A DNA stretch of 63,068 nucleotides, filler included, from Hausera hauseri (lineage: Eukaryota): the NCBI GenBank assembly GCA_046269625.1. It is 11 parts of 11 records of this genome, joined end to end, with 100 filler letters (N's around TTAATTAATTAA, not from the genome) between each part and the next. Parts side by side here need not be neighbours in the genome. Positions count along the whole stretch, not along the records: positions 40,223 to 47,065 come from JBJURY010059662.1; 10 more parts are not named here. One strand, 5' to 3'. Positions 10,997 through 58,617 of the stretch are shown here, one piece after another. The notes below the pieces were generated by a model. The model did not search any database and had not been told where the DNA came from. It saw only the letters and a list, made by a program, of their open reading frames with translations. The stretch's first letter is position 1; each line of letters starts with the position of its first letter. Position numbers and translations under genes: made by a program.

Positions 10997-11137
10997 AGAA
11001 CAGAATTTGGCTAGCTTCGCAGAAGAGAGCCACGGTGAGAAGTAATTTACAGTTTAAGATTATTCCTTAGTTTCAAACAGATTTTAAAACGTTTTCGCAA
11101 ACAGTCTTTAAGACTTGTTTTGCAAAAAGATTTAAAA

Positions 11138-25353: not shown

Positions 25354-26995
25354 CATAGAAATCCACAACCACGACATTTGATTCTAATCCTTTTCCCGTG
25401 TCATATTCTGCTCCATTACAATGTCCGCTAAGCATATCCAATCTTCCAGCTACTACTTTGTATGCTCTGATTATTTTTCCGGGCTGCATCTCCAGTTGCA
25501 TGCTATCCCATTGTATCCTTCCAGTTTCTTTAGCTTGTTTACAATGTTGACGCTCTAAATTCATCGGAATTAAAGGAGTGGTGGGCTTAATTATGGAGGA
25601 GTGCCCATGTATTAGTCCGCAGTGAAAAATGCTGCGTGACCGTTTTAGCATGCATTCCATACCATCTAACGATACCAATTCTTGTTGTTGATACAGGAAG
25701 TAATTTTTCTCGCGCGTTTCTAGTTTGTGTGGCCTCGCATCTTCGCAGGCTTCTAGATCCATTAAAGAATATTTTTGTCCCAATTTAAACTTGTCACAAT
25801 TGTAGACAGTTACTGCACTTATGTGCTTCATTATCATCATTAATGTAAATAAACTAATCAGCCAATTCGATTCATTTTTCCGACCTCCAACGTCCGATGT
25901 TGTCAGACTACGTAATATATCGTCGAGCTTATTGTTGCCCCGTTTATCTTCTTCCTTATCAAATAATTTTGTCCAATTTACTTCGCCGGGTATTCTTCTC
26001 GCCACCCTCCGTGCTAAATTTATTGCTCGGTTAATTTCAGTTTCTCGGTTCGGGTTTATTTTGACGGTTAGATACAGCAAAATTTTCCTCAATTCTTCAT
26101 TTGTGTTTTCTACCATAATCTTCTGTATTACCGACTCATCGGTTAAGTTACATTTTGATAGTTTGAAACGAGTACTTTTCATTATTTTAGCTGCGTCGAA
26201 AATTATCTTTTCCTTATCATCTAATACGTCTCCTCGGAAACTCGAATAATTCACAATTCGTACTAAATTTTTTACCAACTCAGTTAACTCCTCGTTTTCG
26301 GTGCTAAGGGTCGGAATCGACATTTGTCTCAATTCTCTAATTAGCTCTCCGTTGTAATCCACTTCTTCTCGTATCTTCCTAGGTCTGCCGACCGGACGTT
26401 TCGATCTTGGACCTTTAGGGTTTGCCTCGCTTAATGGTACTAAATTTATGTCGTATTGTTCTTTATCTTCATCCGTTTTTAAATATTCAAAATATAGTGC
26501 TGCATCTCGAACTCCCATAATTTGTCCGACGCATTGCTCTGTTATGGCTTTACGTGTGGCTTCCTCCCTTGTCTGCTCATTAGCTATTATTACCACTATT
26601 CGATTTGTTTCGTCGGCAATGATTCCAACGTCTATCAATTGTTCTAAGTCATCTAATATTCTACCCCTAAAGTAAAATCTATAATTCAACTCATTTGTCT
26701 CTCCATTCTTCACTAGCCATTCTCTTACATCCTTTACGTAAGAATGTGTAGTCAATTCGCATTCTTTCTCGTCCATCCATTCGGATGACACCATAACTTT
26801 CAACATAACCTTAGGTTTAGTCCTTAAGGTTTTAGCGTACTTCTTTATCAACAATTTCGGCACCGTACTATAAATTGTGTTTTCGCTAGACAACTTAGTT
26901 AAGGTGGGAATAAGTTGTCGTAGTTCATTCTCAGCAATATTTACGTTAATCGACTCCATCAAATCTTTCTCAGTTAAGGCTGAGTCCAGTAGCAT
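25354..26995 (-). mobile_element. env: Polyprotein segment: Ubl domain (26806-26582), AT-hook (26401-26375), internal signal peptide (25867-25814), class III glycoprotein N-terminus
   Basis: VKDVREWL...YRFYFRGRILDD..QLIDVGI; KRPVGRPRK; WLISLFTLMMIMKHISA|VTVYNC...YSL..LEAC...IFHCG...HCKQAKETG...GHCNGAEY. Confidence 0.8.
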
Positions 26996-27010
26996 TTCTA
27001 CTTTGAATCT

Positions 27011-28960
27011 CTAGTCCTTAGGACAAGTTTCTATTTCGTTTAGCTGCACGGGGGTCATAGGTTTTTCGGCCAGTATCTCGTCGAAATATGCGTCCCATTC
27101 GGGTTCGTTTTTGGCATCTAGAAGTCGGCAGTCCACTAAAACCGTATTGTCTCTTTGAATGTTCTCCCGAATTTCCTTTAATTTAGGTTGTATTTCTTTC
27201 ATTCTCATAGTTCGGAAACCTATTCCATTTCCGCAGGCATATTGTATGGTTTTTAGTAATTCCCCGAATTCGTTAGAATCAATCAGCCCTTTTTGATGAT
27301 AATCGGTCATTTCAGGAATCACATCCTTTTCCCACCGTTGTACAAATTCTCGTTTATTTTTAATCTCCGATTCAGTAAAAGCATACTTCTTACGATAGAC
27401 CGCGAGCTCCTTAGTTAATTCGTCTATCCTTATCGCTTTTTGTTTCGTTTTAATAGCTGTTTCTTCTACCTTGTGTATTTTGGGCATCAGTTGCCTCATC
27501 TGCTCATCACTGATTTCCGCCATTTCCGCCAATAAATAGGCTAACTCATACATCTCATTTATGGTCTTTGAATCTGGATCCATCGCATCCGACAATTTCT
27601 TCACGAATTTGTGTTCCTGAAAGCTAAAATGTGGATCATTCCCTATTTCTATCAACTTGGTATGGGAATTCTGGTCTGATCCGGCCATCCATTCTTGAGG
27701 TTTCTGTAAGAAACTTATTGCATCGGTTAGCGTATCTCGGTATCCTGGACAAATGTCTAGAATTTCAATATCTTGTGCAAAAATTTCGTCTATTGGTTTT
27801 CCGGTTAAGTACTGAATTCCTTCCAACCGGACGACCTTTAACTTCAAATTTACATCGTGAATCATATTCCGTTTCTCCGTAAAGTTCGCTTCTTCAATCA
27901 ATTTGTAGATTCCTTCCATTGTTGACAATTCTCGTTCCTTTTCCATAAATTTTAGTTGCAGTAGCGCTTCAAATTGAGTACGGATATTTATCTCTATTCG
28001 CAACGTGGCTAAGTTGTGCGCACTTTGCTCTAATTGCTGCTTCACTGTTTGCTCACTTTGCGGAAATTTCGTTTTACGATCTTCTACCAATTTGGTTAGT
28101 CGCGCTACTAACTTGGACCATTCCGGCAATTGATTTGTAATTACAGGCTTCGCTATTATTGCTTTATCTAACATCTTGTATGCATCTTCTAATTCATCAT
28201 CCGGTCCTTTCAGAAAATTCATAACTCGTCCGATATAGTTAAACTCGTCCTTGTATTCGTCCAATTCTACAATACAAGCCTTTACTATATATTGGGTCTC
28301 CTCATGGTTTGAAATCATGATTCGGTTTTTCAAGCTATAAATTTGTGCTCGCTTTTCATTTTCTATCTTCAGCCGATTCTCCAAGTTTGTATATTGTTTG
28401 AGCGTATCAAATGCGACTTTTATCATTTCCATTAAAGGAGGAATATCTAACGGATCTATACCCATTAATTCCAAGTCAATATTACTGCGTTTGTTAGGCG
28501 GTTTTTCCCTAAGCCGTTTAATCATCGCATAACGAATTTCGTTCATGATACGTTCTAAGTTGCGAACTACTCTCTTCAGTTTCGGGTTTTCTTCTAGAGT
28601 AGATAATAGCTTTTGAACCTCAGTGACTTTTACGTCAACTCTATCTTCGTTCTTATTCCATCCTTCTACAAACTCGACTCCACTTTTAATCCACAATTCT
28701 AATTCGTGTTTCTATTTTGATAATTTTTCCGGAGATACCTTTTCAGGCTGTCGCACCTCGATTGCTTCAACGAATTTCCCTCCGCTACGTAATTTCAAAC
28801 TTTTATATAGTTTCTCGGCGTATTGTTGTTCTTTTCCAGATATATCGACTTGTTCGATAATTCGCTTAAGCTTTTCTAAATTTTGCTGCAATATCTCAGG
28901 CTTTAAACAATCAATTTTATTTTTTTTAATTCGTCGGCGTTTTTCCATGAACGTCGGATA
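27011..28960 (-). mobile_element. Long helical/coiled-coil polyprotein segment of copy A, function unknown
   Basis: ORFs 28712-28948, 27011-28696 and 25354-26995 share one frame, separated only by single TAG codons at 28714 and 27013. Confidence 0.7.
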
Positions 28961-28962
28961 TT

Positions 28963-30016
28963 TTACTTCTTGGGCTCAAAATATTCAGTAATCATTGTTT
29001 CTTCCTCGCTAATGGGAAGTGGGCATATCTCGTTAATCTCGCCAATTGACTCTTCCGGTTCTGGTGTATTTAAGCCAAGGTCCGGGCCACCTTCTAGAAC
29101 GATGCTCGGATTTTCTGTTCTTTTTATTTTTTCTTTTGTTATTTTGGAACGCGAACGACTTCTATGTTCGGTTTTTAACGATGGGCTACGGCCTGTGTTT
29201 TTGGTAATTTTGAGTATTAATGGCTCCATAAATTCTTTTTCTGCCGCTTCATCTTCAGTGAGTTTAGCAACTTTTTCAACTGCGAGTTCGGGCTCCGCGT
29301 CTAAATCGACTACTGTCGACGGATCTGGTTCATCTGGCGCCTTGTTACTTGTCGGAATACTCTTCTTCCGCGTCATATCGCTTCGCTTAGGTGCTATGTC
29401 ATGTTTGTATTCCGTCTCGTGTTCTGTTAACCCGTGATATACCTCTAGCAATCTCAATTTATCTCCGTATTCTCTTCTGGCCATCAAAATTTGTACGTTC
29501 GTAGTATCTGGTTGAGTCGCCAAAAATTTTCTCAAATCCTGTATGTCGATGATGGTGGTCGTATCTCCCCGGACGCCATATTTTGCTTCTAAGTTCTCAT
29601 TAATTTTAATCATACTAGTCTTATTTGGTTCGGTAAATGAAACGCTACGCGGATTTGGACATGACCTCGAAATGTGTCCTTCTTTGCCGCAAGTAAAACA
29701 AACCAAATTTCCATTCCTGCCGACTCTCTGTCGACCGTCTTCGTCAACTGGTGACTTGGATCTAATTATGCCTTTACTAAACTGATTTGACGGGCTTTGC
29801 GTATTATCGGTATTTCGTTTGTTATCATTACCTCGGTAATCACCAGTTTGATTCGAGTAGGTTGAACCTCTGTAACTTCCTCTATTCCTATCCCAATCCG
29901 AGTCTGGTTTGTTTGTATAATTATTACCTCTGCCATTTTTGTAACTGTTATTATTATTCCTATTTCCATAATTTCTATTACCTGTAAATCGTCTGTCATC
30001 TCTTCGGTCATCTCTT
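28963..30016 (-). mobile_element. gag: Gag C-terminus: R/G/N-rich nucleocapsid and CCHC knuckle of large env-bearing LTR element, copy A
   Basis: Frame open from contig edge; RDDRR...RGSYRG..., CFTCGKEGHISRSC. Confidence 0.85.
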
Positions 30017-31860: not shown

Positions 31861-31989
31861 GGCTGCGGGCGTATCCACGCCGTTCACATCTCCAAAATTG
31901 AAAATTCAAATTTAAATTAAAAATCAATAAATAAAGAGTGTGTGTTGATATTGTTATATTTTTCATTATTTCAAATATCCTTTCAACAA

Positions 31990-37400: not shown

Positions 37401-37754
37401 ATGCAGTTTATCAAATGCACCGTAAATGTAGTAAGATATCTAATCATAAAATTACTTCTAAAAGTTCCAATGGACTGTGTAGTCTGAGTTGTCACAAAGA
37501 CGTCTGCAGTATTTGTGGTAGACCCCAATGAACCTGAATTATCCGGCGTAAAACTGGTTGAAATGGGCCAAGTTTTAATACTGTCTTCATAGACAGTAAC
37601 ATAAATATTACCATTAAAGTTGGAGAATGATTTTGTATCGGTGACATGTCGAACTCTTGTTGTCTGTGTATACATCTGATCCACATTTGTCAGTCGATTG
37701 AAGATCATTAGTGTTTATTTTCACAGTAATGTTATAGAAATGTTTATTCGAAAC

Positions 37755-39545
37755 CTCTTTGGACATGCTCGTATACGCATAACGGTCCGTCTCAATGATG
37801 ATTGCATTACCGGATTGTGGATGGAGAGCAAAACGCCGTGGTGTATAACTTAACGGATGGCTGATTTGATTGAAAATTGTACCCAGTTTTTCCAGTGCCA
37901 GAATACGCAACGAATTTTGACAAATAGCAACAATTCCTTCAGGACATTGTTCGGAAGAAAAACTGCTTGCATATTCCAGTGCTTCATAACTCAACGGAGT
38001 GAGATGGAATCTATTCTGATACGTGTAGTTCAACCATGGACGAGTGGAAATGGCCAAAACTGCTTCACTGCCCTGGACCATAATTCGGAACAATTTGACC
38101 GGTTGGTTACCGAGATATCGAGTTCTCGTGTCTGACAATTCACCTTTAACTGGATCTAATACAGTTCGTAATAGACCACCATTTTGAAGACCGATGTTAA
38201 GATATAAAATGCCAGCATTAACTTGAGATTGGTCTTCGAATGATTCACCACCACCGAGTTCGGCAATGCACAGTGATTCCGGATTGACGGGTAAACTTTG
38301 CATCGTTAACTGAATTAGACATGCTGATGGATCCAAGTTGTAAATACGGACTGTCTGGTCTGCCAACCCAACCGCTAAGAAACGAGATCGTTGTTCATCA
38401 GGCGGAACAGAACCAAGGGCCATGCAGGTAATGTCAACATTGGTTTCTCGACGACCTTGGAATTCATTGAGCTGACCGGAATTTGCGTCCATTTCAAAGT
38501 AGACAAGTTCATTCCCAGTCAATGCAATTACGACTTGACGAAGATTTAAAGCACATTTGATAATGGACCTTTTCTGCGGAACTCGCCAAACGTGCACTCG
38601 CCTGTCAGGCCTAATGTGACGAATACCTTCTGGATAAATCTGGACCAAAGCATCTTCACCTAACTGCGCACACATTAGAGTTGGAGTTGTTCCCAAAAAA
38701 CCACTATCGGTTACTTCTTCAACCGTTTCGCCAATCGATAAAACCAGAGTTGCATTAACGAATGAAACGACGATATATGCATCATACTCTTCATCGGACG
38801 TTCTTTTTACAGTCCACACAGCATTGGGATGACCAGGAAGGTCGGATTTTGCCATAACGGAAACTTCTAAACCATGTGACAACAATCTTAAAGACGATCG
38901 TGGACCACGACCACAGAGTAAAGCTAACTGTGGTGTATCCTCATTGGCCAGATCGGCAATGTGACAGCACGTATAAGGATCTAAACTAGTGATTTCATCA
39001 ATAGACTGAAGATTTTTAAGTCCTCTTGGCGCAAAATAAAAGTATCGCCTTCTTCTAAGGGCATTGCTGATAAAAATTCAGGCTCGTCGTCACCATCACC
39101 GAGATTCGTAATTTGGTACAAGTATTGATTACCAAATTCTCTAGCAAAAAACAAAAATCCTGTTTTTAGGACACACATGGATGTTGCAATTGGAACTGTA
39201 TCGAAATACTTCAAACGCATTTCTCGTACTATCTCATCATCTGTCTCTAAGGTAATCTTGAAAATGTCACCTTGTTCAGTTTCTGCCAAGAAAAAGTTTT
39301 TTCTTTGGTTGATCACTAAAATTCTTATACGTAATGTAATTTTCTGAGCAAATAATAACACCCGAAGGACCTTATTTTCCACCGGGAACAGAGATTGAAA
39401 AGTTCGCATTCTCTTCTAATTTTTCACAACTTTCTAACTACATGATTCAAGCCTAAATCCAATTCATAATAAGTGAGGTGTTTACGAATATCTTCAATAA
39501 CTTTTCCAGTAGTGTCAAAATCAGCCTCGGAATAATCAATTTCAA
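37755..39545 (-). pseudogene. SF3B3: Splicing factor 3B subunit 3 internal fragment, disrupted at its 5' end
   Basis: [68 protein letters not shown]; TAA at 39374, deletion near 39305, frameshift near 39040. Confidence 0.93.
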
Positions 39546-40222: not shown

Positions 40223-41860
40223 ATTAATATCGTTGGACGGAATGGAACGTATGTTGAGACGATCTCGTAGCATCTTCCATTGTGGATTGATGTACGGACA
40301 TTCGTCAATAATCAAACCAACAACTCATCCGATCCAAATGAGTGTGGAACACCAGCATTGTAAACAGGCCAAGGAAACCGGAAAACTAAAATGGAAGAGT
40401 ATGGAACTAGACATGAAACCAGGAAAGATAATTAGGACATATAAAGTAGTGGTTGGAAGGCTAGACATGCATAATGGACATTGCAATAAAGCAGAATACG
40501 ACACCGAAAAAGGATTAGAAGCAAACGTAGTGGTCGGGGATTTCTATGAATCGGAGATGCGAGTACAGAAAGTAATGTTCCATAGCTTCACCAAACTACA
40601 AATCGAGAATGAAAAATGCCATTTACAAGACGGAACCTGTGCCTTCAGAAGTTCTGTTATAATATGGGAACCTTCCTCTGGAAGTAACTGTAATTTTATC
40701 AAAATCAAGGAATTGAAATTCAACGAAACTACCGGCAAACGGTATGTAGACAAATCTTATACCAACTCAAGGACACACGAGGATGTTGCAGAATACCCTA
40801 CACCTACTATATTGATTTCCGACCAGCATGGACTAAAATTTATCAAGAAAGAAATGATCACTCGTTGTGAATTGGTGATGTTCGCCACTAATTATGAAGC
40901 ATTTTCGTCGCAGAAACGGAAATAAATGCGAAAACGTACAAGGTAGAAACGCAGGACATCCGGATTGAGAATTACGTGAAAAACCGAGATGATTACTTTT
41001 ATTACAAAAGACAAGTTGGAATAACCGAATTATATCACAAAATGATAACGAACAATTATAAATTAGATATGGAAATCATTAGGACAAAATTGGATCTCAT
41101 CTACGTTAACCCTGAGTTAGACTTTCCAATAATTCCTGAGAGAAGGAATTTTCGGTAGAGTTACCGATGAAGTCCTACTGACTTATGAATGTAAGAAAAG
41201 AGACGTACCAATCAACGTTGAAGAAAAACATTGCATACAAGAACCTTCTGTTATTTACCAGAATTCTTCGAGGTTAGCCACGCCGCTTACTAGAGTGTTA
41301 TTAGACAATGCAACTGAACCAAAAATCCTTAAAGATTTTAAAACAAGCTTAGAAGAACCCATTTTTATACCTAGTGAAACGGATGGGTCAGTTTGCGAAA
41401 CGGAGGTATTACTGCCGCTCCAAATAAATTTACAGGAACAAATTTCGCAATAGGAATTACAGACGACAAATTTCAATATATCTCATCGAAAGGTATATAT
41501 AGGCCTAAGGAAATTGAAGCTTTCAGACAATTTCTTGCTTTTCCGCCACAACGGACACACGAGTTGAATCGAGCCATGGCCTCCGTAGTATATGATACTC
41601 TATATCAAGCAAAATGGTAATCACTACTTGGCGTAAACCATTATCAGCAAGTAACCACAGAAATACTCTACAAAATTTGGGGGAGATTTTTAATTTTTGG
41701 ACAAGCTGCATCCGGGTTTTTAGCAATATATTTCCTAATACAAATGATTAAAGCAGTCATCCAAGCAGAGATAAATGGATGTAAAATATTTACACTGACC
41801 GGATTTTCATGTAAAATACTAACTGCAATTACAACGCCTTTTGGAAAGTTCTTGAAAGCA
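40223..41860 (+). mobile_element. env: Class III (chuvirus G / gB-like) envelope glycoprotein, copy B, degenerate
   Basis: IFHCG, HCKQAKETG, CHLQDGTC..SVIIW, EVLLTYEC, PLTRVL, GIY..KEI...RQFLAFP, C-terminal hydrophobic IKAVI..EING...GFS..ILTA; about 76% aa identity to copy A over 106 aa (hand count). Confidence 0.82.
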
Positions 41861-42539
41861 TATGAAGAGAATAGATGGAAATCAAACGTAGAACGCCATG
41901 TCGGTTACCATAATCGTAAACGAAAAGGAAGACCGATGTTTTTGTACAAGCGGAAACTCACGAAAACTAACACGCGAAGAAATAATTCAGATGATGACTG
42001 GCCTAAGAGAGGAGAAGTATTTTCCAGAAAAGACAGACACCAGATGTATTCCGTCGTTAAAGCACCATTGCCCATGCTACCCTCTACTGCTCCAGTCTAT
42101 GAAGACTGCGACAAACGATTAATGAGCTCATATCAGACAGAAATTTATAAAAGACAATTAGTTTAGAAGATTTCTATGAAGGAACGAAACGTTATGGAGT
42201 CCTACGAAAAATGTGTTATCAACAGCCCATAGATGGTCCCAGAATATTGTATTCCCCGAGAAAATCTCGGAATATAGAGATAAGATCGCCTGTCTGGGAC
42301 AATCCAAGGTTAAAAACCTTTCGGAATATAGAACCACATACTAACAATCAAGAACCATTAATAAGTACCCATAAGACGGAAGAATTAAACATCGAAAACA
42401 ATAAACTGTATCCAAACGGGGAACTAAGACAATTAACGGAGAACATAGTATCCTCGCCGGAAATCCAAATTAATGGACATAAAATATCGACTATTAAACG
42501 CCCAAAGGCTGCATTAAACTGTTTTGAAACAGTAATAGA

Positions 42540-45500
42540 AGGAAGACCCTTCGCCAAAATCATTCTTGAAGACTGGGAAGTTTATGCATTAATCGATACA
42601 AGTTCTGAAATGTCCTACATTAAAAATGATTCAATCCCTCAAACGCTTAGAGACAGTTATACCCACCATCTACAAAAGATCCAAAAAGCACAGGAGCTTT
42701 TGGTCGAATGTCAAAACCGATATACAAATGGAACTCAGAAGTGCAAATAGCTGGACAATTTTTCCGTCATGAATTCGCAGTTATGGAACAATTAACTGAC
42801 GATGTAGTTTTAGGATGTAATCTATTAAAAAGACTATCGAATATAGCAATCGACTTAGAAACGGGAAAATTAATAGAAATTAGACCAAATAAAGGCGTAA
42901 AAAATGCTAGGGATAGAAAATTTGGGGAAGTGTGGATACCATCAGATAAAAATATCCAACCGAGAACAGAGATAATATTTTACGCACAAGTTCAACAAGA
43001 TGACGATCAACCGGTATATTTCGAACCAAAGGAGATATTAAATCCGATTATAACACTTAGTAACATACTGACAAGAGTGCGCTCCGGTCAAATACCAATT
43101 AGAACAGCAAATAGTGCACCGACCCCCGTGAAGCTTCATGCTTATACAACATTGGGAGATACATATAGAGTGTCAGCTATAACTATTGAAGAAAAACCTT
43201 ACAAATATGCCGAATTCCCACTGCATGTTGAAACTAAATTTTCCCCCGAATCTTATTGTCGATTCTATGAATTATTATGCCGCTATAAGTCGATTATTAC
43301 TAAGGACGATGAGGATATTGGTAGGGCAAAGGCATTAAAGTTGACTATTCCGCTTAAGAAAAAGCCTGGTTCGAATGAAGCGATGGATCTTGAAGATCAA
43401 AAGATGCCGAAATGGTATCCTCCGCCACATTCACTAAGGCACGCGATAACAATGCAAGTCGAGCGAGTGCTTAAGGCCAATATAATTAGGCCCATTTATA
43501 GACCTCGGTATTCACCAATCCTCATGGTCAAAAAGAAGGATACTACGAAACATCGATTCTGCATTGACTACAGAGCATTAAACAATCTCATGATGAAAGA
43601 TTCCTTTCCATTGCCATCAGTAAAAGAGGCTTTAGACAGACTCTCGGGAGCAAAGTGGTTTACCACACTGGATTTACAATCCGGATATTGGCAAGTAGAA
43701 ATCGAAGATGAAGACCGATATAAAACTGCATTCAAAACACTATGGTGTCTACGAGTTTAACGTCATGCCATTCGGTATTACTACCGGACCGGCCATATTT
43801 ACGAGTATGATGAACAAAATGTTATTGGGGATAGACCGTTCTTTTGCGTATCTAGATGACGTAATGATAGCATCAATGACGGCAGAGAAACATCTGAAAG
43901 ATATTGAACACATGTTAATGCGACTAGAACAGGCAGGACTGAAATTAAATCCGAAGAAATGTAAATGGGCTCAGAACGCAGTATCCTACCTTGGCCATAA
44001 AGTTGGAGAAGGAGGATCAAAGCCAGATAAATCATTACTAAACAAAATATCAGAGTGCATAGAACCACAAAATTAGAAGTAATTAAGGCATTGGCTAGGT
44101 CTTTGTGGATATTATGCGTCCTACGTGCCGGATAACTCGAAAATCATATACCGTCTACTTAAAAGGGGAATTAAATGGAAATGGACACACGTCGAACAGG
44201 AAGCTTTTGACGAAATGAAGATATTAACAAATGAACCAGTTTTACGAAACCCATACTTTAATTTACCCTTTATAATCAAGACAGATGCCGGTAAGGAAGG
44301 TATTGGATATTAATTAGCGCAGAAAAGAGAAGACGAAGAATTAGAACACCAAATTGCTTATGGAGGACGTTCTTTGAAGAAGGCCGAGAAAAATTATTCC
44401 GTCACTGAATTAGAAACCTTAGCCGTAAAAGAAGCGCTACGACATTTCAACGTTTACATACACGGGTAGAAAATCATAATTGTTGCTAATCATAAAGCCG
44501 TCACTACCCTAAAAGGACGAGCGAATAATCCAACATGCAGACTTAACATATGGATCGAAGAAATCTCTAGATACAATATCGGATTTCAGTATAGGCCAGG
44601 AAATAAGCATGTTAATGCCGACGCCCTATCGAGATTAAAAACCAAGGCGAGTGCAATTACTGTTATGAAGAAAAGTCAGCTTGAAGAAATAATAGATTGC
44701 CAACGCACCTTAACGATAGACAAAGCGATTAAAATCTCGACCGAACAAAGAAAGGATGGGATTATGCAGCAGATCATAGAATTTGCTGTAAAGGACACAA
44801 TACCAAAGGGACGACAATTACAGAATTATCTACGTAGACATAGACACAAATATTGCATTCTGAACAACAAGTGCCTCGAAAACCTTCTGCATTATGAACG
44901 AAAAGGAAGAAAACTGATAGTTATTCCGAAAAACTTACGAATGGAAGTTTTGATGTCGGAACATGATTCATATTTGGCAGGACACATGTCCTGGAAGAAG
45001 ACATTAGAGAGAATATCGAACAAATACTTTTGGCCCAGCATTTATATCGATGTAAAGAATTGGGTAAATGCTTGCGAAGTATGTGCAACTAAACAGAAAA
45101 AGACGAAGAATTACATGGCAGCGCTAAAACCAATCGCTGTACCAGATAGGCCTATGCAAGCCATGTCAATGGATATTGTAGGACCGCTTCCTACGACCAA
45201 CAAGAACAATAAATACATCTTGATTTGTATTGATCGGCTAACTCATTTTTTCGAGTTGATAGCACTAACCGATCAGAAGGCGGAAACCCTGGTCTAAGCT
45301 GTAGTCAGAAGAATCATTTGCCGATACGGACCCCCAGACCAAATATTAACAGATCGAGGAAGAAACTTTACCAGTGAACTATTCGAGAAGATTAGCAAAA
45401 TATTTGAAATCAAAAGATTAACCACGACTGCGTATCATCCTCAGTGAATGGAATGGTTAAACGAATGAATGCAACTGTCATACGCATACTATCAACAGTA

Positions 45501-46010
45501 GTAGCTAAAGACCAGAAAGATTGGGACGAATTTTTAGAAGGAACTCAATTTGCAATTAATATCACTCCGCATCTAGCAACAGGATTTACTCCTTTTTATG
45601 ATGTACGGACGTAAGGCTGCGTTATCCACAGACTTAGAAATGACGCCATACACAGTCAATCCCGAAGATTTAGAACAAAATTTTGCCGAAGTATTACAGA
45701 TGCGACTACACAAATGTTGGGAAATCGCCAAGGAGTTATCCCGAGAATATCAAGAACATTTTAAAAAGCAATACGATAGGAAGGCTAAGCCATACGATTT
45801 AGAAAGAGGAAATTGGGTTTATGTACATTATACGGCAGCCAAGAAAAGTTCATCATTAAAACTGACTCGTACAGGCCGAAGACCGTACGAAGCTATTAGA
45901 GTTACGCCAACTGCGGTATACATTAACATGAATGGAAAGGAAGAAGTCGCATCTGTAAAAAGATTTGTTAATATGGAGATACGGCCCAATAAACGTTATA
46001 ATTTACGTCA
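42540..46010 (+). mobile_element. pol: Ty3/gypsy pol: PR-RT-RNaseH-IN, degenerate
   Basis: LIDTSS 42589; RFCIDYRALN; LDLQSGYWQV; MPFG; YLDD 43849; TDAG; NYSVTELE; NADALSR; HHCC; DIVGPLP; TDRG; TTAYHPQ. Confidence 0.95.
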
Positions 46011-46049
46011 ACGCGAGATAAAAACTTCTTCAATAATTACTAGACCGAT

Positions 46050-47061
46050 ATCATACACTCAGATAATCTTAACACTATCGTTAATTGCTTCTTATATTCC
46101 GAGAACATAAACTCAATGGTGGGTTGACGAATCTACGCTATGCGACGTATACGGAATACGGAAAAGCGGACTAAAGGCGGAAAACACCCTAGCGAAGAAG
46201 AAACCAACAGCCAAAGAGATCCAAAAACAAGAAGACACTAGATTGTTACAATCAATGACGGTTCATTACTTCATGCCAGATGCCGTGTGTGTTGGATTTG
46301 AAACTTGGAGACCACATCACGGTTTCGGAAATTTTCAGATTATCCTATACGATGAAGCGACAAAAAAGGCGGAAAAATGCGATTTTGAACCCGGAGATTA
46401 TACCCAATGCTGCGACATGGATTTTTGACATACCTACATCCTTACTTATCGCATGTATTTTCCGGACTCAGCAGAAATCTATGTCAAAGTAAATCCACAA
46501 CTTCAGTTGGTTATTCCCCCTTGGCAGGGGCGATTCGGAAGGAATCCCGGCGAAATACTGCAATCCACCGATTCAGAGATAAGGTTATTAGATGAAAATA
46601 TAAAAAGTATAAATAAGGAAAAACAATGCATCCAAGTAGATGCCCGAATAGGATTAAACCTTAGTCAAGAAATTATTATTGTCTTTGAAGCGGTAAACGG
46701 GAAAACTCCGAAAATAGAATACTGTTCCGTCCGTGCCGGCGTGCAACATCCATGTTGTAAACTGCCATTAAACCGGGAATTCAAAATAAAATTTGACTTA
46801 TATGAAGTGCGACCGAACAAACCGAGTATACAACTACGAACCTATTATCCCGAAAATAGAATATGGAAAATATCAATAGAAACGACAACTAAAAAGCCGA
46901 CTACTCGGATTAGTACCTTTGCAAGGACCATTACGTCGGACAGTACGACTAAGAGAGAATTGGAAAGCATCCCTATAAAATATTTGGCACATCAATTCAA
47001 AATTGTGTTCTGTGCAGAAATTAAATTACGATATACACATAAGCTGCCGAACAACGTATAA
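46050..47061 (+). mobile_element. Post-integrase extension: signal-like segment, two Cys repeats, Thr-rich stalk
   Basis: Same frame as integrase, with single stops at 46108 and 46426; IILTLSLIASY; EKCDFEPGDYTQCC and EYCSVRAGVQHPCC; ETTTKKPTT. Confidence 0.65.
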
Positions 47062-47165
47062 TAATNNNNNNNNNNNNNNNNNNNNNNNNNNNNNNNNNNN
47101 NNNNNNNNNTTAATTAATTAANNNNNNNNNNNNNNNNNNNNNNNNNNNNNNNNNNNNNNNNNNNN

Positions 47166-48900
47166 ACACCCCTCGGAGGCGTGCGAATCGATAAATCAAT
47201 TTGAACATGTGCCAGTCGATTGTGCACAAGGAGCACTATCGATCGGTAATGCGCTAGGTGACGGTGCCATTAAACACCGTTGCTATGCACATTTTTCCGA
47301 TATTTCCAATATTTATGATTAGCATATGTGACCGGGTGCAATCGAGTGCAAAATCGATTCTCTATGTGAATGTGCAATTAAAATTTAAATCGGTCGAGTG
47401 GATTTCAAATAATATCGACTCGAAGGTAAGGTGGTGCAGACTTCACATAGTCTTTTAGGTCCTAAGGATTAAAACTTCGATACAACATTTAGTGGAGACA
47501 GATAGAAAGTCGAGTATTTCGATCTCGAATATAGAGTCGAATATTCAAAATTCAAAAAAAAATTTGGCCCAAATATCGAATATCAAACTTTTCGAAAAGT
47601 CTAGCAACAGAATCCGCTTCATCATTTCCAAATACCTCTTTATACTTTAAAGTTATTCCATGAAAATGTGTTATATAGGTACAAAATCAATATTTGAAAT
47701 TAAGCAATGTGCATTTTAAGCCCAGTGAAGCGGAAGTCGTTAAATCTATAAGCGGAGCTGGATAGGAAGTCATATAGTGTCAATCGGAATATGATGGTAG
47801 ATGATCGAATTCGAGCTTTCAAGTCGAATATTTAGCTATTCGAACTTGAAAACTCGGTCAACCGTACGTTATTTGAAGACTCTGATGGCTTTAGTCGATT
47901 GTTTATGCACGAAAACCTATAGGGCAATCAATATTGGTGCGGTGCAGCACACCGCGGTGGATTAAAACAAGGTTTAATAACAAGTAAAAAGTACATAAAT
48001 TACTAAGTAATTAAAACGGTGCTTATTTTTATTGCACAATTGAGGGTGAAATTCGAGATGAAGCACACTGAAATCTTTAAGCGTAGACAGATAGGAACCC
48101 ATATTTGGCGAATCTGAATCTGGTGTTAGATATTCGAATACATTATTCTAAATCGAACAATTATCGATTCGAACTCAAAAAGTCGATCAAGCATACGTTA
48201 TTCGAAGAATCTGATCAGTCCAATAAATTGCCCATATGCAAAAACCTATAAGGGAATCAAAGTTAGCACCATGCAGTGCACCGTTGTGGATTAAAACAAA
48301 GTTTGTCAATATGGTAAAAATTGCGTAAAAAATATTATGTAATTCAACGGTGCTCATTTGTTTTAATTAATTGGGTAATATTAAAGTGTGAATTTGAAGG
48401 TAAAGCACACTGAAATCGATAAATATAATAGCGCACACAGATAGAAAAGCATATATGGGAAATCCGAATCCGATGTCAGATATTCGAATACATTAATCGA
48501 AATCGATTAATTAACTATTCGAACTCGAAAACTCGATGCAACCTACATGTTTTGAAGAATATGATTGCTTTAATCGATTATCAATGTGCCAAAACCTTGT
48601 GTAGAAATAAAATGGGCTCTGTTCGATGAATCGTTATCGAGTAAATTAACATTGAAAAATTCACAAATGTGTGAGCTTTAATTAACTTGATTTTCAAGGT
48701 GAAGGGTGCAAAAATCGATGAAACTTTAAATGTAAATAGATATGAAAACATGTATGGGGAGTCAGATTATGGCGTCAGATGTTCGAATATCGGTTTACAA
48801 GTCGAATATTCAAATAATTTAATGCTCGAAAATCGATAATTTTAAGTGTGCACATGTTATTTCAATGTGAATTTCAAGGTGATGAAGCAGATTTAGCGAG
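47166..48900 (+). repeat. Complex repeat family with diverged ~260-350-bp subunits
   Basis: gatag(g/a)aa...ga(t)attcgaa block recurs near 47500, 47761, 48090, 48440 and 48738; homologous to 57170-58617 and 58718-59908. Confidence 0.85.
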
Positions 48901-49839: not shown

Positions 49840-52800
49840 AGACAGTGGCCAGTTGATACGGCAGCATTAAAGAGAAAATGCCTCAGCTATGTTATTATTG
49901 CAACTGGCGAAACAACGCTCCATGAGTTCCTGGAATATACAAATGACGAAACAGAGGGAATTCTCCAGGACTACATGGCTGAGCTCAAATCCCTTAAAGT
50001 GAATATGAAACTGGATGCCACATACATGAATGTTAATGGCGGAGAATCCAATAGGGCCTTCAAGACCAAAAATGGACCCATATTGGAAAATACAAATATA
50101 GCATAATGGCTGCAAGAGGAGCACGAGAAGCTGATCCGTAAAGCCGGAGAGAGACAGGAGAAGAAGAGCGGATGGACTGTGGCAACCATCAAAAGATTGA
50201 TTGTGTATGTTCATAAGTACTCTCCCATGGGGCACAGTTCATATATTTGGCTACTTGATTAGATCGCTAATAAAAAAGCATTTGTCAATGTCCATAATAA
50301 CGACAACATGTGTTTCATGTATGCCATTGTATCAAAACTCGTACGAGATTAAAATAATGCTTTATGTGCATCACAACTATGACTTCCAATGTATTAAGTT
50401 CCTGCCATCTATAAATGAAGTCAAGACGTTCAGATCAACAATTTTTCCATCAATATCATTGGATTGGATGATGAGGACAAATTCTATGCCTTGCAAAAAT
50501 GCGATGTTGAATTGGAAGATCATATGGATCTGCTCCTACTAGACGATGGAGAAAAGAAACTTTACGTTTGGATCAAGAACTTTGAGCAGCTAATCAGATC
50601 CCAAATTACGAATCATCATGAAAAAATAGAAATATGTAAACGATGCTTTTCCCATTTCAGTGGTGATACAGCAGTGGAAAAGCTTGCAGAGGACAAAATG
50701 TATTGCAACAACAATTACTGCGTAAGGCCAGAATTTCCCAAGGAGGACTATATTGAATTCAAGGAGTTCGAGAAGATCAAGGTGCCCATAGTTCCTATTG
50801 CGACTTTGAAGCTATTTTCCGTCCACCCCATAGCTGCACTTCCAGTCCTCAACATAGCAGTACAACGGCATACCAATATCATGAATTCTCATATTGTATG
50901 GATGCCAAAGTACTGGACAGTGAATTATTTCTATTCAGAGGGTCAGACGCAGCAGCACATTTATGAAGAGATTAGAAGACATAGCTCATAGGCTTGATAA
51001 CATGCTTCAACAGCATAAGGATAATATGAGCATGTCGTGGAAACAAGCTGAAGAATGGCGCAAGGCAACAACATGTTACTTGTGCGACAAGTCCTTCACC
51101 AAGGAAAATCATAAAGTCAGGGATCATTGCCATTTTACAGGCACATATCGAGGAGCAGCATGCAACAACTGCCATCTACGCTGCAAAACATGCACATATG
51201 TGCCTGTAATGTTCCATAATCTCAGTGGCTATGATTCACATTTCATTGTTTGGTAACTGGGCAGTATTGAAGGAAACATTGAGGTGATCCCCAACAGTGA
51301 GAAGAAGTATATCACATTTACGAAACATGTTGGGAATATCAGGCTTCGCTTCATACACAGCTTTCGTTTCATGCCGTCTGCACTTGACAGTTTAGTGAAG
51401 AGCTTCCCAGCAGAGCTCAAGGAGACGAAGCGGTTCTTCCCCACTGCATTTGATCTCGTCAAGAGGAGAGGCGTGTTTCCTTATGATTACATAACTTCAT
51501 GGAAACACTGGATGAGGCCTAATTGCCGGCCACGAAGGACTTTTACAATATCCTCTCTGATTGCGATATCAGTGATGAGGGCTACCAGCATGCTCAAAAT
51601 GTCTGGCATGCATTCCAATCCCGAACATTAGGAGAATACAGCGATATTTACATCAAGACGGATGTTTTGCTGCTGACGGATGTCTTTGAGAGCTTCAGGT
51701 ATGTTACGATGAAGAGCCATGCTTTGGATCCGGCTCATTTCTTTACGACTCCAGGGACGAGTTGGGCAGCTATTCTAAGATACACCGGTATTAGGCTGCA
51801 GATCATAAAGGATTACGACATGATCCTTATGATTGAGAGAGGCATTATAGGCGGAATATGCCAGGCCATTCACCGGTATAGCGAATACAACAACAAGTAT
51901 ATAGCCCAGTATGATCCATCCTAGGAATCATCGTATATGTCATACCTGAATGCCAGCAACCCATATGTATGGGCAATGAGCGCCCCATTGCCGTATGGTA
52001 ACTTCAAATGGGTCGATCATCCTGAAAACATCCCTATTCTGGACCTGGATCCCAGTGGAGATGCGGTATACATACTGGAGGTAGATAAGGAATATCCGGC
52101 TTCTATTCACACAATGCATCAACAGCTGCCTTTCCTCCCTGAGAGCAAGCCTCCGCCCTATGAAAAGCAAAGAAAGCTGCTCTGCCATCTGGATAGTAGG
52201 CCGAGGTATGTAATCCACTACATAAATCTCCAGCAGGCGGTCAGAAATGAACTCCGCATTACTGAGATCCATCGGGTCCTGCAGTTCAGCCAGTCCAACT
52301 GGCTGCAGCTATATATAGACCTCAATACGAAACTGCGGATCAATGCCAAGAACAACTTTGAGAAGGATCAGTTCAAGCTTTACAGCAACAGCGTTTTTGG
52401 CAAGACCATGGAAAATATCAGCAACAGGATCAACATCGAACTGGTCTCTGAGTGGAAGCTGGCAAAGAAGCTCATTGTTAAGCCCAACTCCCACAGCAGC
52501 ACCATATATGCGGAGAACTTGGTGAGCATCCATATGCTCAAAACATTCTTGCAATTCAACAAGCCCATATATGTGGGTATTGCAATACTGGACCTGTCAA
52601 AGACCTTGATGTACAAATTCCAATATGACATCATGGTCCCCACATTTAAGTTTATACAGCTGATGTATATGGATACTGATAGTTTCATCTATCAGATCCA
52701 TACAGAGGACATCAATGAGGACTTTGCTAAGTTGGCTCAGCATATGGATACGTCTGACTATCCGAAGCAGCATCCCAACTATTCAATTATCAAGAAAAAG

Positions 52801-53085
52801 GACCTCGGGAAATTCAAAGACGAGGTGAATGGAGCATTCATCTCGAGATTCGTGGCTCTTAGGTCCAAAATACATGCGATTCATGTATGTGGTCAAGTAA
52901 AGAAGCGGACTGAAGGGGTTGAAAGAGCAACCTTTGCCAAGAAGATTGGCTTCGATGACTATGTGAGAGTTCTGCATCAGCAAACTCATATGATATCAGA
53001 GATGCGAAGGATCCAGTCTAGGGCTCATACCATTGAGATAGTAACATTACAGAAGAAAAGCCTAGATTGAATGGGTGACAAAAGG
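49840..53085 (+). mobile_element. Degenerate protein-primed DNA polymerase B (Polinton/adintovirus type) with endonuclease-VII-like insert
   Basis: SGW; VRDHCHFTGTYRGAAC; FHNLSGYD; GVFPYD; YIKTDVLLL; KLYSNSVFGKTMEN; YMDTDS 52666; LGKFKDE. Confidence 0.93.
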
Positions 53086-53398: not shown

Positions 53399-56184
53399 TC
53401 CGAGAAATACGGCTTCAGTTTTAAAAAATGAACATTTGTTTATGTTCAACTGTAGGTTGTTTGCATTCAACCTATAAAACACATGTTCGAGATGTGTTTT
53501 GTGAGTCGCTTCATCGGGTGATGCAATCAATATGTCATCTATATATGAGATTGCATAAGGCATGTTGATGAGGACTTGGCCTATGTGGCATTGGAATGTT
53601 TGACTTCCATTCCGCAAGCCGAAAGGCGTGCGTAGATACTCGAACAAAGCAAAAGGTTTTATTACGGCCGTTTTTGGAATGTCTTCGGTAGCCACTAGGA
53701 TCTGACGGTATTCACTTTCCAGATCGATTGTGCTGAATATTGCTGCACCATGTAGGCGATGCAATATGCCTGTTACCAACGGTGTTAAGTATGAATCGTG
53801 GATGGTGACGTTATTCAACATTCTATAGTCACCACAAGGCCGGTATGATCCGTCCTTTTTGAGAACCATGTGCAATGGTGATGCCCACGGTGATGTAGAG
53901 CGGCGTATAATGCCTGTTTCTTCAACGTCTCGGAATTCGGCTTCCGCTGCTGCTCGCTTGACAGGGTCAAGCTTCCTACGGGGTTGCCGAATCAGTCGGT
54001 CACATGATGTAACGAGAAAGTGTAATGTTTTCATCTCTTCCTGGGTTGGTTGTGCTGAGCGTTTTAACAGGTTAGGGTATTGTGCTTGCAACAATGGAGC
54101 GATGTCAATGGGATTTGCGATTTTGATGCCCGTGACAGCGTTTATAGTTAGTGTAAATGTTGGTAGAGGTAAAGGATTGCTCCCGCTGGTGAGTTGTTGA
54201 TTTCGGCAATCAACGGTGAGATTGTATTGATCTAGGAAGTCAAAATCAAGGATTGATTGCATGACATCGGCCAATATGAATGACCAAGCGTATGGTCGGC
54301 CTTCTAGGTAAAATTGTAGGTACAGTGTACCTGTGGTTGCTATGCGCATGCCATTGGCAGCTTTGAGCGATGCATGCCAGACCAACGTAGGTCTAGCGTA
54401 TACGCTAGGCATCAACTATAAAGCTGCACCAGTGTCGATTAGAAAATAGAGTTGTTTTGCGATGTCAAAGTGTGGAGTTTCTCCGCCTCGAGGGTTAAAT
54501 AGCATCGATAATGCGTTCGCTATTTGTATACGGCAGTTGTGGTGATTGGGTTTCCAGTCGACGTGCCGCTGGTCGTCTGGACCCATTTAGTTTTTTGATA
54601 GCTTGTGAAATTTGCAGCCGGGTCGAAAATTTTTGCGACTGGACCGAAATGATTGTGATAAAGCAAGTGTCTTGCATTTTTATTTTTGCGGATGGCTTGT
54701 CGAATTGACAACCATAGTAATATTTGTAGGCGGATTCGCCAAATCGTGTGTGGAAATGGCAAATTTTGGAAAATTTGCCTTTCTTTCTCTTGGGTGATTG
54801 GCGCCGAGATGACGGTTTGTCCCTGGCTGGCAGATTCTTGTGCATTACAAGTGCTTGCAGTACGGCAATAATTGTGTCCAGCTGACTTTGCTACGTCGCT
54901 GTGATGGAGTTGAAGTTTTCCGCTAGTGCGGATTCTACAGGGCCTTTAGTGCATTCATATATTTTGTCGGTTTTTGATGCTATATCCTCCAAAGTGGTAT
55001 CGGACAGTAATAGCACAAGTGCCGCTTGAATTTGGTTGGGCAAACTACTCAGAAAGTAGCGCCGTAGTATGTGCTGGTTGCTGTGGAGGTCCAGATCAGC
55101 ATTGCTCAAATCTGAGCGTAACTTTTGAAGCAAGGCAGAAAGTTTCATATTCCCTCTCTGTCGCTTGGTTGAACTGGTCCTGTTGGGATGGCAGGTATGT
55201 TTAGCATATGGTTGTTTTGAATTTGTCAAACGGCTTTTCATCTGACAGTAACGTGTCCAGATTCGTTATTGCTGCGAGCGTTGTTGGCTGCATGTATTGT
55301 ATTAGTGTTAAGGCCTTGTTTAGTTGGCCGGTGATGCTGCATTGAGTGGCCCATGTTTCAAACACATGGAACCACTTCAATGGAGTTTCGTTCAAACCTA
55401 TGAAGAAGGTTGGACATGCTAATTTTGGAGGTTTTGCCGATGCTGATGATGCAGTTTCGGCATTTTTGTCAACCGTGTGAGTGTCGACGCCTCCTTTTAG
55501 TCTGGAAGTAGCAAGCAATGTCGCTTTGTTTGTAGGGAAATGATCCGAAATTGGATTATCCCATAGACGCAAAATTTTCGCGTTGTGTGAAAAAATGTGG
55601 TCCAGATATGAAATGGCGAGCTGTTGTAGCATTGCCTTAACAGACATGTGCGTCAAGAAACGATACGCTTTCGTGTTTCGTAATTCGAGTATGAATAATT
55701 GCATCACTTGCGGTTTTGTTTTGTCATCAGAATTGTGTGCCGATTTGACTATGTTGCCGCGTGAAACCTGGCTTGGATATTCAGGCTTCGACTTTTGTTC
55801 AGTACCACTCGTTGTGATTGCCTGAATGATAGCCGCGCTGAAGATATTGTCAGCGGGTGTTGTGTGATCACGTTTGGTGTGTGAGTGTAGCCGGATTGGT
55901 TTCGACGGCATTACGCTAAATTTTAGCCGGACTGTTATCAACTGCTGTGTGAAGTTTGAGCCGGATTGATTTTAACGGCTGAGTTTGTATTGAAATACGT
56001 GAATGCGGTAACCGCTGCCACCATTTTAATTGTCTTGCATATGCTCATAAAATAACTCTGTGCAGTCTTGCATATTAACCTGCATAAGCCGTGGTATAAA
56101 ACGACGGAGAATAAAGAAAGGAGGAAAAACAACATCCACAAATTACATTGTAAACGTTTATTTAAACCAATTGTGTCGTCCACA
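53399..56184 (-). mobile_element. CsRn1-like Ty3/gypsy gag-PR-RT, degenerate; 5' boundary approximate
   Basis: CHCC-type knuckle ICHFHTRFGESA; FLIDTGA; SPWASPLHMV.KKDGSYRPCGDYR; PFGLRN; YIDDILIAS. Confidence 0.9.
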
Positions 56185-57169: not shown

Positions 57170-58617
57170 ACAATCTATGTGCGCTTAAAGATTTATCGAT
57201 TTCAGTGTGCTTCGCCTTCAATTACACCGTGTAATATAGGTCAATTAATTAAAACAAGCTCCGTTGAATTGCATAATATTTATTACATAATTTAAACATT
57301 TTGACAAACTTCGATTTAATCGACAACGGTTCACCGCGTCAATTTCGATTTCCTTATAGGTTTTCACATATGGAGAATCGAATTCCCTCATCTGATTCTT
57401 CAAATAACTCATGCTTGATGGAGTTTTCAAGTTCGAATTGATAATTAGTCGATTTCGAATAATGTATTCGAATATCTGACATCGGATTCATAATCGTCAC
57501 ATATACATTCCTATCTGTGTATGCTTAAAGCTTCATCGATTTTAGGGTGCTTCACCTTCAAATTAACCTCAATTGCTTAATCAGTGTAAGAATTACCTAG
57601 CATTTATTAAGTACTTTTACCATATTGGAAAACCTTGTTTTTATATACCACAATGCATTGAACCGCACTAATATTAATTGCCCTGTAGGTTTTCGACCAT
57701 GGGGAATCGAATGGCCTCATTATGGTCTTCGAATAATGCATGTTTGACAGAGTTTTCAAGTTCGAATAGCTAAGTATTCGACTAGTGAGCTCGAATTCAA
57801 ATATCTGGTGCTATATTCCGATTCGGCATATATGATTTCCTATCTGTGCCCGCTATTAGATTTATTCATATCCGCTTTGCTGAGCTTTAAATGCACATTT
57901 TGCTTAATTCGAAATATTGATTTTGTGTCTATATAGTACAATTTCATGGAACAACTTTTATGTATGCGGGGTTTTCATATATGAAAAATCGATTGTCGCT
58001 GTTACATTTTTCGAATAGTTCAATATTTGATATTCGAGCCAAAAAATATTCGAATTTCAAATATTTGATTTGAGATTCAAGATCACAGTAGCGGATTTCC
58101 TATCTGTACCCGCTAATTATAATATCGAATTTTGACTCTTTCGGACCTAAAAAATCTATTGCTAGTCTGCCTCAGTTGCATTTTGGATTGATATTATTCG
58201 AAATCGACTTGATAAATTTAAATTCTAACTGCACATTCATGTACTGCACCAGGTTCGTGTTTGAATGCACCGGTCACATGTCCTAATCATCAATCTTGGA
58301 AATATCGGTAAAAAGATATTACTGATTTTTGCACACTTGCACATGTGCCTTTGCAATGCACAGGATATATCAAGTTGCATCTCAATGTTCTCTATCTACC
58401 TGCACTTGACCGCGATCGATTCCATTAATCCTACGCTGCACAGTGACCAAAATGTGAAAAGTGAAAAGTGCCATGGCAACCGTATCTAAGAGCACCTCCA
58501 CCTTGGGAGTAGGGGGAAAATGGCGGTTCTGCCCCACCCCGGGGGGGGGGGTAATCGATAAATCGATTTTGCACATGTGCCAATCGATAGTGCACATTGT
58601 GCACTATCGATCCATAA
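57170..58617 (-). repeat. Complex repeat family, inverted copy then start of a forward copy at ~58508
   Basis: 58200-58310 is the reverse complement of ~47290-47410; 58536-58617 matches 47168-47250 directly. Confidence 0.85.

Follow-up and report, generated by a model that had tools for sequence, protein, structure and literature searches.

Introduction

The locus examined here raises the question of what is encoded by the long reading frame that continues behind the integrase of a retroelement in Hausera hauseri, and whether this sequence belongs to the element at all. The first-pass annotation had read it as a second membrane or secreted protein in the position usually taken by env, possibly a receptor-binding or immunomodulatory partner of a fusogen encoded upstream. 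The window, i.e. the whole stretch of 63,068 nucleotides that was analysed, consists of contigs joined end to end by a fixed spacer with 10 occurrences. The sequence beyond 47165 was considered as a flank of the gene and rejected since it belongs to a different contig. The coordinates of the features are compiled in Table 1.

Table 1. Features of the element, of its related copy and of the frame behind the integrase.
Feature	Position	Strand	Remarks
Related element, 5' half	25354..30016	-	Separate contig; gag with zinc knuckle, long ORF, signal-like stretch, env start
Class III (Monjiviricetes/gB-type) fusion glycoprotein gene	40224..42163	+	Five frame pieces upstream of pol; 5' part lost at contig start
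Retroviral-type aspartic protease, broken	42541..42750	+	PF00077 E 0.076; tblastn with P0024
RT, RNase H, integrase in Ty3/gypsy order	42651..45993	+	RVT_1, Integrase_H2C2 and rve matches; point stops and frameshifts
RYNLR motif and short linker, integrase end	45994..46035	+	Possible protease-cleavage region (inferred)
Internal signal-peptide-like segment	46036..46116	+	Hydrophobicity peak; stop at 46108 in window copy
Charged N-terminal spacer	46117..46245	+	Helical in P0003 model (H45-73)
FN3-like domain 1	46246..46512	+	Cys 46288, 46378, 46408, 46411; stop 46426; seven strands E6-E94 in window model; FN3 matches
FN3-like domain 2, duplicate of domain 1	46600..46845	+	Cys 46627, 46723, 46753, 46756; seven strands E124-E205
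Thr/Ser-rich linker between domains 2 and 3	46882..46956	+	13/25 Ser/Thr; also in P0003 and P0017; low-confidence coil in P0003 model
FN3-like domain 3, start	46957..47065	+	Frameshift near 47015-47034; contig end; membrane helix and tail from homologs only
Contig spacer	47066..47165		N44, 12-base linker, N44; sequence past 47165 is another contig

A decayed Ty3/gypsy element with env upstream of pol

The contig at 40223-47065 opens with pieces of a class III fusion glycoprotein gene, which are followed by a protease, RT, RNase H, an integrase and, last, an FN3-like gene. It begins within env and stops within the FN3-like gene, and no long repeat or LTR was found within it. The PF24664 matches are ordered along env (profile positions 287-611, best E 3.9e-14) and lie at 40898-41893, the protease starting at 42541. 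The hallmark of gB-type GAG-ENV-POL elements, a class III env upstream of pol, was thereby found, as was the Ty3/gypsy (Metaviridae) Pol order of protease, RT, RNase H and integrase with gypsy-type domains. RVT_1, RT_RNaseH, Integrase_H2C2 and rve were detected in the nearest Pols of the window element. The pol region holds 11 stops in 749 codons, six of the 11 within an out-of-frame patch at 45445-45574. The C-terminal domain of the integrase is in frame +1 from about 45598, and a tblastn search with the related Pol P0016 gave a single block at 43747-46122.

A related copy on a separate contig (25354-30016) stops short of pol and the FN3-like gene. Env and the FN3-like gene were observed together only in the contig at 40223-47065. 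The copy has zf-CCHC and PF24664 matches, its env start covering profile positions 5-170 (E 2.6e-15), and it shows a gag upstream of env, the target contig being without gag. The first env piece of the target contig is 76% identical to this env start, and the DNA at 25354-25674 matches that at 40228-40548 at 74%. Since the differences between the two env copies fall mostly at third codon positions (56/107 mismatches, vs 15 at first and 13 at second positions), env has been under constraint. The contig at 40223-47065 represents a decayed element of the Ty3/gypsy type in which env precedes pol, and its copy in the window is inactive.

Between its gag region and the env signal the related copy contains about 960 residues (25354-28711, minus strand) with one stop and a coiled-coil-rich appearance, for which Pfam gave no significant match. 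This region includes a weak ubiquitin-like stretch (26576-26827; ubiquilin-2, E 0.39) and a GRPRK motif which we take to be AT-hook-like. Other gypsy-type gag, protease and RT remnants were observed on separate contigs at 53399-55971, 35783-37122 and 30144-32218, all on the minus strand.

The reading frame behind the integrase

Frame +1 is open from 45577, and its only stops before 47059 are those at 46108 (TAA) and 46426 (TGA). The initial observation that the integrase frame runs on with just these two point stops thus holds: the interval 45994-47031 has two stops in 346 codons vs 23 expected, the other two forward frames having 22 and 19. The stop at 47059 was considered as the natural end of the gene and rejected, because the homology shifts to frame +2 near 47015-47034 and reaches the contig end at 47065. 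In a tblastn search with the homolog P0017 frame +1 matched at 46870-47034 (53%) and frame +2 at 47015-47065 (65%), with E 1e-12. The window copy carries a frameshift near 47015-47034 and is then severed by the contig end inside domain 3.

A hydrophobic signal-like stretch had been noted behind the integrase, and it coincides with the hydrophobicity maximum of the whole frame at 46048-46098 (Kyte-Doolittle 2.1 over 11 residues and 1.35 over 19). The signal-like segment is the best-kept part of the frame, sharing 18 of 26 residues with the segment at the N terminus of the homolog P0003. The signal-peptide assignments rest on hydropathy, homology and models. No ATG was found in the window frame between 45976 and the signal stretch. 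The motif RYPLR precedes the extensions of the related Pols P0024, P0027 and P0009.

Domain anatomy of the encoded protein

The two E-x-C-x4-G-x4-C-C repeats described in the first-pass annotation lie exactly at 46372-46413 and 46717-46758, and each is indeed preceded in frame by a Cys (46288 and 46627, respectively) and an II(L/I) strand. As a self-match the 14-residue motif pair is non-significant, being reached in 272 of 1000 shuffles; the 30- and 45-residue repeat self-matches are significant (9/1000 and 6/1000 shuffles). A C-x(n)-CC pair was reached in 4 of 20000 shuffles, the pattern having been picked after the fact. Profile comparison of domain 1 with domain 2 confirmed the duplication (E 1.4e-5); neither of these two domains gave a significant profile match to domain 3 or to the distant tails (E 0.056-0.33). 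The proposal of a duplicated ectodomain therefore stands as regards the Cys-bearing duplication, but not as regards the number of domains, since the homolog P0003 gives three FN3-like domains instead of two. Likewise, the Thr-rich stretch is present, but its reading as a membrane-proximal stalk was rejected because it sits between domains 2 and 3.

All Cys of domain 1 (4/4) and of domain 2 (4/4) are common to the window copy and P0003. In each repeat they are located on the second, fourth and fifth strands, with two on the fifth, and two disulfides per domain are therefore plausible according to the models. Domain 1 of the window copy is acidic (K+R 6 vs D+E 12), and domain 2 of the window copy and of P0003 as well as domain 1 of P0003 are basic (K+R 16-18 vs D+E 8-9). 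Domain 2 contains one N-glycosylation sequon.

Predicted fold

Structure prediction, as had been suggested for the repaired frame, gave FN3-like sandwiches for the window repeats and for P0003 at modest pLDDT. Three domains of seven strands each and a helix at 430-466 are seen in the AlphaFold2 model of P0003 (3 sequences, pLDDT 55.7). When the two repeats of the window copy were modelled with X at the stop, they formed 14 strands in two sandwiches (pLDDT 57.8). The FN3 hallmark of a seven-strand, two-sheet sandwich of about 90 residues is thus seen in both models, their pLDDT being modest.

In Foldseek searches of the PDB the P0003 model matched FN3 tandems best (fibronectin 10-12, contactin, gp130; E down to 7.5e-10) and the window model FN3 pairs (Ihog, Robo3, LAR, IL-2R beta; E 7e-5). 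Many of the named top matches of the P0003 model in a viral structure library were FN3 proteins as well. VIA-align gave Z 7-8.8 against FN3 and Ig-like chains for the P0003 model, which is middling by the scale of the tool, and Z up to 7.8 with an rmsd of 3.0 over 86 residues for the window model. Fusogen chains or herpes gD/gH/gL chains were absent from the listed fold matches.

At the level of sequence, no fn3 match at the curated Pfam cut-off was obtained for the window frame or P0003, and P0017 reached 13 bits vs a cut-off of 25 (E 0.12). The identity to cellular FN3 proteins in the fold matches is only 5-18%, and the Atlas leads (FNDC5, FNDC9 and IL-11R alpha) all had scores below 0.9 with low recognition. 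FN3 is a generic fold and no specific donor can be named.

Homologs that cover the ectodomain

A search of 1.84 billion representatives yielded 56 matches, two of which span the extension and ectodomain, namely P0003 (479 aa) and P0017 (189 aa, the C-terminal half). P0003 (E 1.1e-51, 35% identity over query residues 154-487) is unbroken and comprises a Met, a signal-like segment, two Cys repeats, a Thr linker, a third domain, a membrane helix and a tail. All eight Cys (8/8) and the signal segment are preserved between the window copy and P0003 at about 33% identity. The membrane anchor, which is missing from the contig, is supplied by this intact homolog (helix 430-466). YxxI is retained in both P0003 and P0017, along with a basic cluster and a Cys next to the membrane. 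The type I layout is indicated by hydropathy and the model in P0003 and by helix and tail in P0017, the window copy being severed before the helix.

P0003 is a free-standing ORF that opens with its own Met, and the fusion to Pol may therefore not hold for the closest relatives. Since, in addition, the window frame lacks an ATG in the interval before the signal stretch, the fusion is certain only for the window copy and for the distant Pols P0016, P0024 and P0027.

Other searches were of little yield. A word-indexed search found no near-length homolog of the window frame (923 candidates) and only P0003 itself for P0003 (3340 candidates). Pfam was uninformative for both the window frame and P0003, PHROGs matched 0 of 3, and a sequence profile search of the PDB found no chain at E up to 10. 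A scan of prokaryotic genomes gave 114 pattern matches with 0 confirmed.

Affiliation of the gene with the element

The adenine fraction of the extension (0.363) is close to that of pol and env (0.368-0.382), compared with 0.27 in two cellular-type ORFs. The codon use of the extension correlates with that of the element at 0.48-0.72 and with that of the two cellular-type ORFs at 0.21. Since an unrelated gag ORF also reached a codon-use correlation of 0.5, composition and codon use mark A-rich retroelement sequence in general. The stop density of the extension (2/340) is similar to that of pol (5/564), which argues that both decayed together. Furthermore, the extension is in frame with the integrase and intron-free across 346 codons, and no LTR was found between the integrase and the FN3-like gene. 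The flanking host gene that the first-pass annotation had itself named as its alternative is disfavoured by this in-frame continuity, the missing LTR in between and the element-like composition and codon use. Its proposal of a second membrane-protein gene within the element, together with a class III fusogen gene upstream, gains support from P0003 and from the PF24664 matches.

In-frame tails in three other Pols and a conserved homolog argue that the gene belongs to the element, and that it is neither a second fusogen nor a flanking host gene. With regard to its anatomy, the region is very probably a decayed gene of the element that lies behind the integrase and encodes a type I membrane protein with three FN3-like domains.

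FN3-like tails in other Pol proteins

Four of the matches have at least 900 aa, and three of these (P0016, P0024 and P0027) are gypsy Pols with an in-frame tail. Behind the integrase each of them runs through a signal stretch into FN3-like domains, which are followed by a membrane helix and a tail, the domain number across the relatives ranging from 1 to 3. P0027 has additional protease-like and ankyrin domains, its ankyrin repeats preceding the signal/FN3 tail. No env was found within the ORFs of P0016, P0024 and P0027.

The positives of an earlier tail profile are circular, because it was built from six FN3-bearing sequences; the independent test is the leave-out one. A leave-out profile of the tail domains of P0016, P0024 and P0027 had as its best outside matches domain 3 of P0017 (E 7e-5) and P0003 (E 1e-4) among 179 proteins, a test set without a host FN3 control. 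A close-family profile found P0027 at E 1.3e-3 and ranked it above the rest of the fetched proteins.

When RT-RNase H-integrase sequences were compared by BLAST, P0016, P0024 and P0027 were the top three of the 89 full-coverage Pols (44 shorter matches having been dropped), although the query by which these three had been collected contained the tail. In an LG+C20 tree of 19 chosen rows the window Pol joins the same three at 92/92, the support being unstarred and the branch long and of odd composition. FastTree (90 rows; 0.96) and a quick LG+G4 tree (24 chosen rows; 95) pair it with the tail-less P0053. A single origin of the FN3-like tails is favoured, rather than shown, by these sequence comparisons.

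An FN3-like tail was detected in none of the 120 listed out of 341 longer Pol relatives, all of which are distant (23-38% identity) and many of which end near the integrase end. In P0067, an intact Gag-Env-Pol, the match to class III env is weak (E 6e-5); the protein ends 59 residues after the integrase and is tail-less. A fused tail is therefore not required, and a separate downstream ORF would be invisible in protein data. BLAST of the five env pieces against the 179 fetched proteins gave no match, a test that is insensitive since Pfam detects the class III env in P0067. The expectation that the region recurs in other members of the family was thus borne out for P0016, P0024 and P0027, but not for P0067 or the listed distant Pols.

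P0070, P0108 and P0146 are single ORFs with Pol, a chromodomain, a signal and an envelope protein, the signal-bearing envelope protein being fused in frame behind the integrase and P0070 having a match to the rhabdovirus G fusion domain. The position behind the integrase seems to gather extra modules. A second aspartic protease domain was observed in related Pols, either upstream (P0024) or after the integrase (P0027, P0009).

Putative function and alternative explanations

In the predicted protein a signal peptide is followed by three FN3-like beta-sandwiches, a single membrane helix and a short tail that bears YxxI. It might be translated together with Pol, or else from a message that is spliced or has an internal start. 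The internal signal would thread the FN3 domains into the ER lumen, signal peptidase and the element protease would free the tail from the integrase, and the C-terminal helix would anchor the protein. The tyrosine motif YxxI may sort it to the membranes where particles bud. Adhesion or receptor binding could then bring the particle or the producing cell against a target cell, and the upstream class III protein would perform the fusion.

A tandem of FN3 domains on a membrane is a binding module and not a fusion machine. As a counterpoint, rhabdovirus G and baculovirus GP64 need no partner, since each carries out both binding and fusion by itself. Adhesion or receptor binding is favoured here because of the nature of this module and because HSV gB needs gD, gH and gL, as discussed in the available text of PMC13524379, according to which entry by gB-type errantiviruses is unexplained. 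By this analogy the FN3 protein is presumed, with a probability of roughly 0.4, to be the attachment partner of the class III fusogen, a reading that we favour tentatively over those discussed below. A lineage of gB-type GAG-ENV-POL elements with a two-protein envelope, composed of a pre-Pol class III fusogen and a post-Pol captured FN3 receptor-binding protein and possibly made as one polyprotein crossing the membrane several times, is the boldest reading and appears rather doubtful.

As an alternative, a captured cytokine-receptor-like FN3 ectodomain might act as an immune or signalling decoy. Exposed on producing cells or released from them, it would bind a ligand or receptor of the host and thereby shield the niche of the element, with no role in entry. 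Among the fold matches gp130, IL-12R beta1, IL-2R beta, IFNAR1/2 and EPOR are found, the IL-11 receptor alpha is one of the Atlas leads (score below 0.9), and the placement of Cys on strands four and five presumably resembles that of a class I cytokine receptor disulfide. The short tail without kinase or phosphatase domain and the variation from 1 to 3 domains among the relatives, as in accessory genes, would also suit a decoy. However, the FN3 tandems of adhesion proteins rank equal or higher in the fold matches, and no PDB chain was matched by sequence. The WSxWS motif, which characterises the membrane-proximal domain of the class I cytokine receptor module, is absent from the window and P0003 sequences. 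We regard this alternative as unlikely.

Next in order, and to be called improbable rather than unlikely, is a helper that acts on the producing cell by organising cell-cell contact or budding sites or by blocking the re-entry of related particles (receptor interference). The type I topology with a conserved YxxI agrees with such a role, and the basic domains (domain 2 of the window copy and P0003, domain 1 of P0003) would suit glycosaminoglycan binding, although domain 1 of the window copy is acidic (6 vs 12). Amounts at the level of Pol would presumably be low for a particle spike; however, a spliced message, as described for the post-pol ORF of Cer1 in the available text of PMC10309623, could yield high amounts. 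The evidence as such does not separate a cell-side helper from attachment on the particle.

It seems considerably less probable that the gene is a passenger, i.e. a fragment of a host FN3 gene that was captured once or several times and is carried along or domesticated with no role, or else a flanking host gene. The few homologs (only 2/56 matches cover the ectodomain and none is near in length), the free-standing ORF of P0003, the incomplete tree support for one origin and a profile test set without host FN3 controls are in line with a passenger. These points have to be weighed against the intron-free continuity with the integrase over 346 codons with no long repeat or LTR in between, the element-like composition and codon use with a stop density like that of pol, the Cys and signal segment kept at about 33% identity, and the identical layout behind three other integrases.

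Finally, a second fusogen, or the remnant of a classical env at its usual position, was rejected as very improbable: the env-typical position, signal peptide, conserved Cys and membrane anchor are shared with such proteins, but there is neither a Pfam family match nor an R-x-K/R-R processing site nor an internal hydrophobic peptide, and the top matches in the PDB and viral libraries are FN3 and Ig-like chains corresponding to a tandem FN3 fold.

Other features of the window

Fragments of an RSE1/DDB1/CPSF1 beta-propeller gene at 37614-39415 (minus strand) presumably derive from a gene like that of the splicing factor SF3B3. An open frame of 862 codons at 11039-13627 (plus strand) encodes two protein kinase domains split by short tandem repeats, which we take to be HIPK-like, and its GC content is above that of most contigs. 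Fragments of a protein-primed-type DNA polymerase B were detected at 15995-18657 and 50419-53070 (plus strand), with PF03175 at E 8e-6 for 16890-17444 and no Pfam match for 51925-53067; we assume that they possibly represent decayed Polinton-like elements. Furthermore, the window contains an exon of an acyl-CoA synthetase-like AMP-binding enzyme (6493-7245, plus strand) and a dispersed non-coding repeat family of 66-87% identity on three contigs (47186-48597, 57173-58612 and 58719-59905).

Comparison with known systems

The gB-type errantiviruses with the GAG-ENV-POL order are reported from nematodes, bryozoans and flatworms in the available text of Chary and Hayashi (PMC13524379). As described there, they share with the window element a Ty3/gypsy pol and a class III env upstream of pol. 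They are presented with three ORFs, and the terms 'fibronectin', 'accessory' and 'extra ORF' are absent from the main text of that paper. Beyond these elements, the window element has the post-integrase FN3 membrane protein, and in its second copy approximately 960 residues separate gag from the env signal.

The Anakin elements, cited in the accessible parts of PMC12440569 and PMC13524379 as BEL/Pao elements with a chuvirus glycoprotein and compared here by description only, are similar in carrying a Monjiviricetes-type glycoprotein in an LTR element but differ in being BEL/Pao and not gypsy. Cer1 CERV is, according to the available text of PMC10309623, a post-pol ORF that lies within a single long ORF and is expressed from a spliced mRNA. 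Like the tail of the window element, it is a non-env gene at the env position, but it encodes a nuclear RNA-export protein. The bdelloid ORF3 types are extra post-pol ORFs as well and comprise F-type env, small TM proteins, GDSL or DEDDy in the available text of PMC5408684, where the term 'fibronectin' is absent.

The cellular type I membrane proteins with FN3 domains (FNDC4/5/9, cytokine receptors, contactin, gp130, CD45/LAR) are alike in fold and topology but differ in sequence, with 5-18% identity in the fold matches and no sequence match. The herpesvirus gD has a beta-sandwich fold. With the herpesvirus system of gB, gD and gH/gL the element would share the proposed division into a class III fusogen and a separate beta-sandwich binding protein. 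No homology of the FN3 protein to gD, gH or gL was found, and the herpesvirus system differs in that the carrier here is a retroelement and the partnership is proposed by analogy.

No description of a post-integrase FN3 membrane protein was found in the open literature; Repbase, subscription papers, preprint supplements and Sacco et al. 2022, which is said to deal with nematode elements of the GAG-ENV-POL gene order, might mention one. An env-before-pol gypsy element is of a known kind, and the post-integrase FN3 membrane protein is the apparently new part.

Significance

In 12 of the 16 GAG-ENV-POL rows with LTR coordinates in the available data of PMC13524379, the pol stop is apparently separated from the 3' LTR by 1 kb or more. 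These 16 rows come from 34 (10 bryozoan, 9 flatworm and 15/36 nematode), 18 without LTR coordinates having been dropped, and the distance assumes the paper's 3000-nt extension. Such a space is room for a gene and not evidence of one. The region that lies after pol and before the 3' LTR of GAG-ENV-POL elements is under-examined.

The FN3 protein is a concrete candidate partner for a gB-type fusogen, and the question of entry becomes testable because this candidate has an intact natural homolog and a defined fold. Should it act instead as a decoy or as a cell-side helper, the invertebrate-type retroelement would still possess an accessory surface protein for which no description was found in the open literature.
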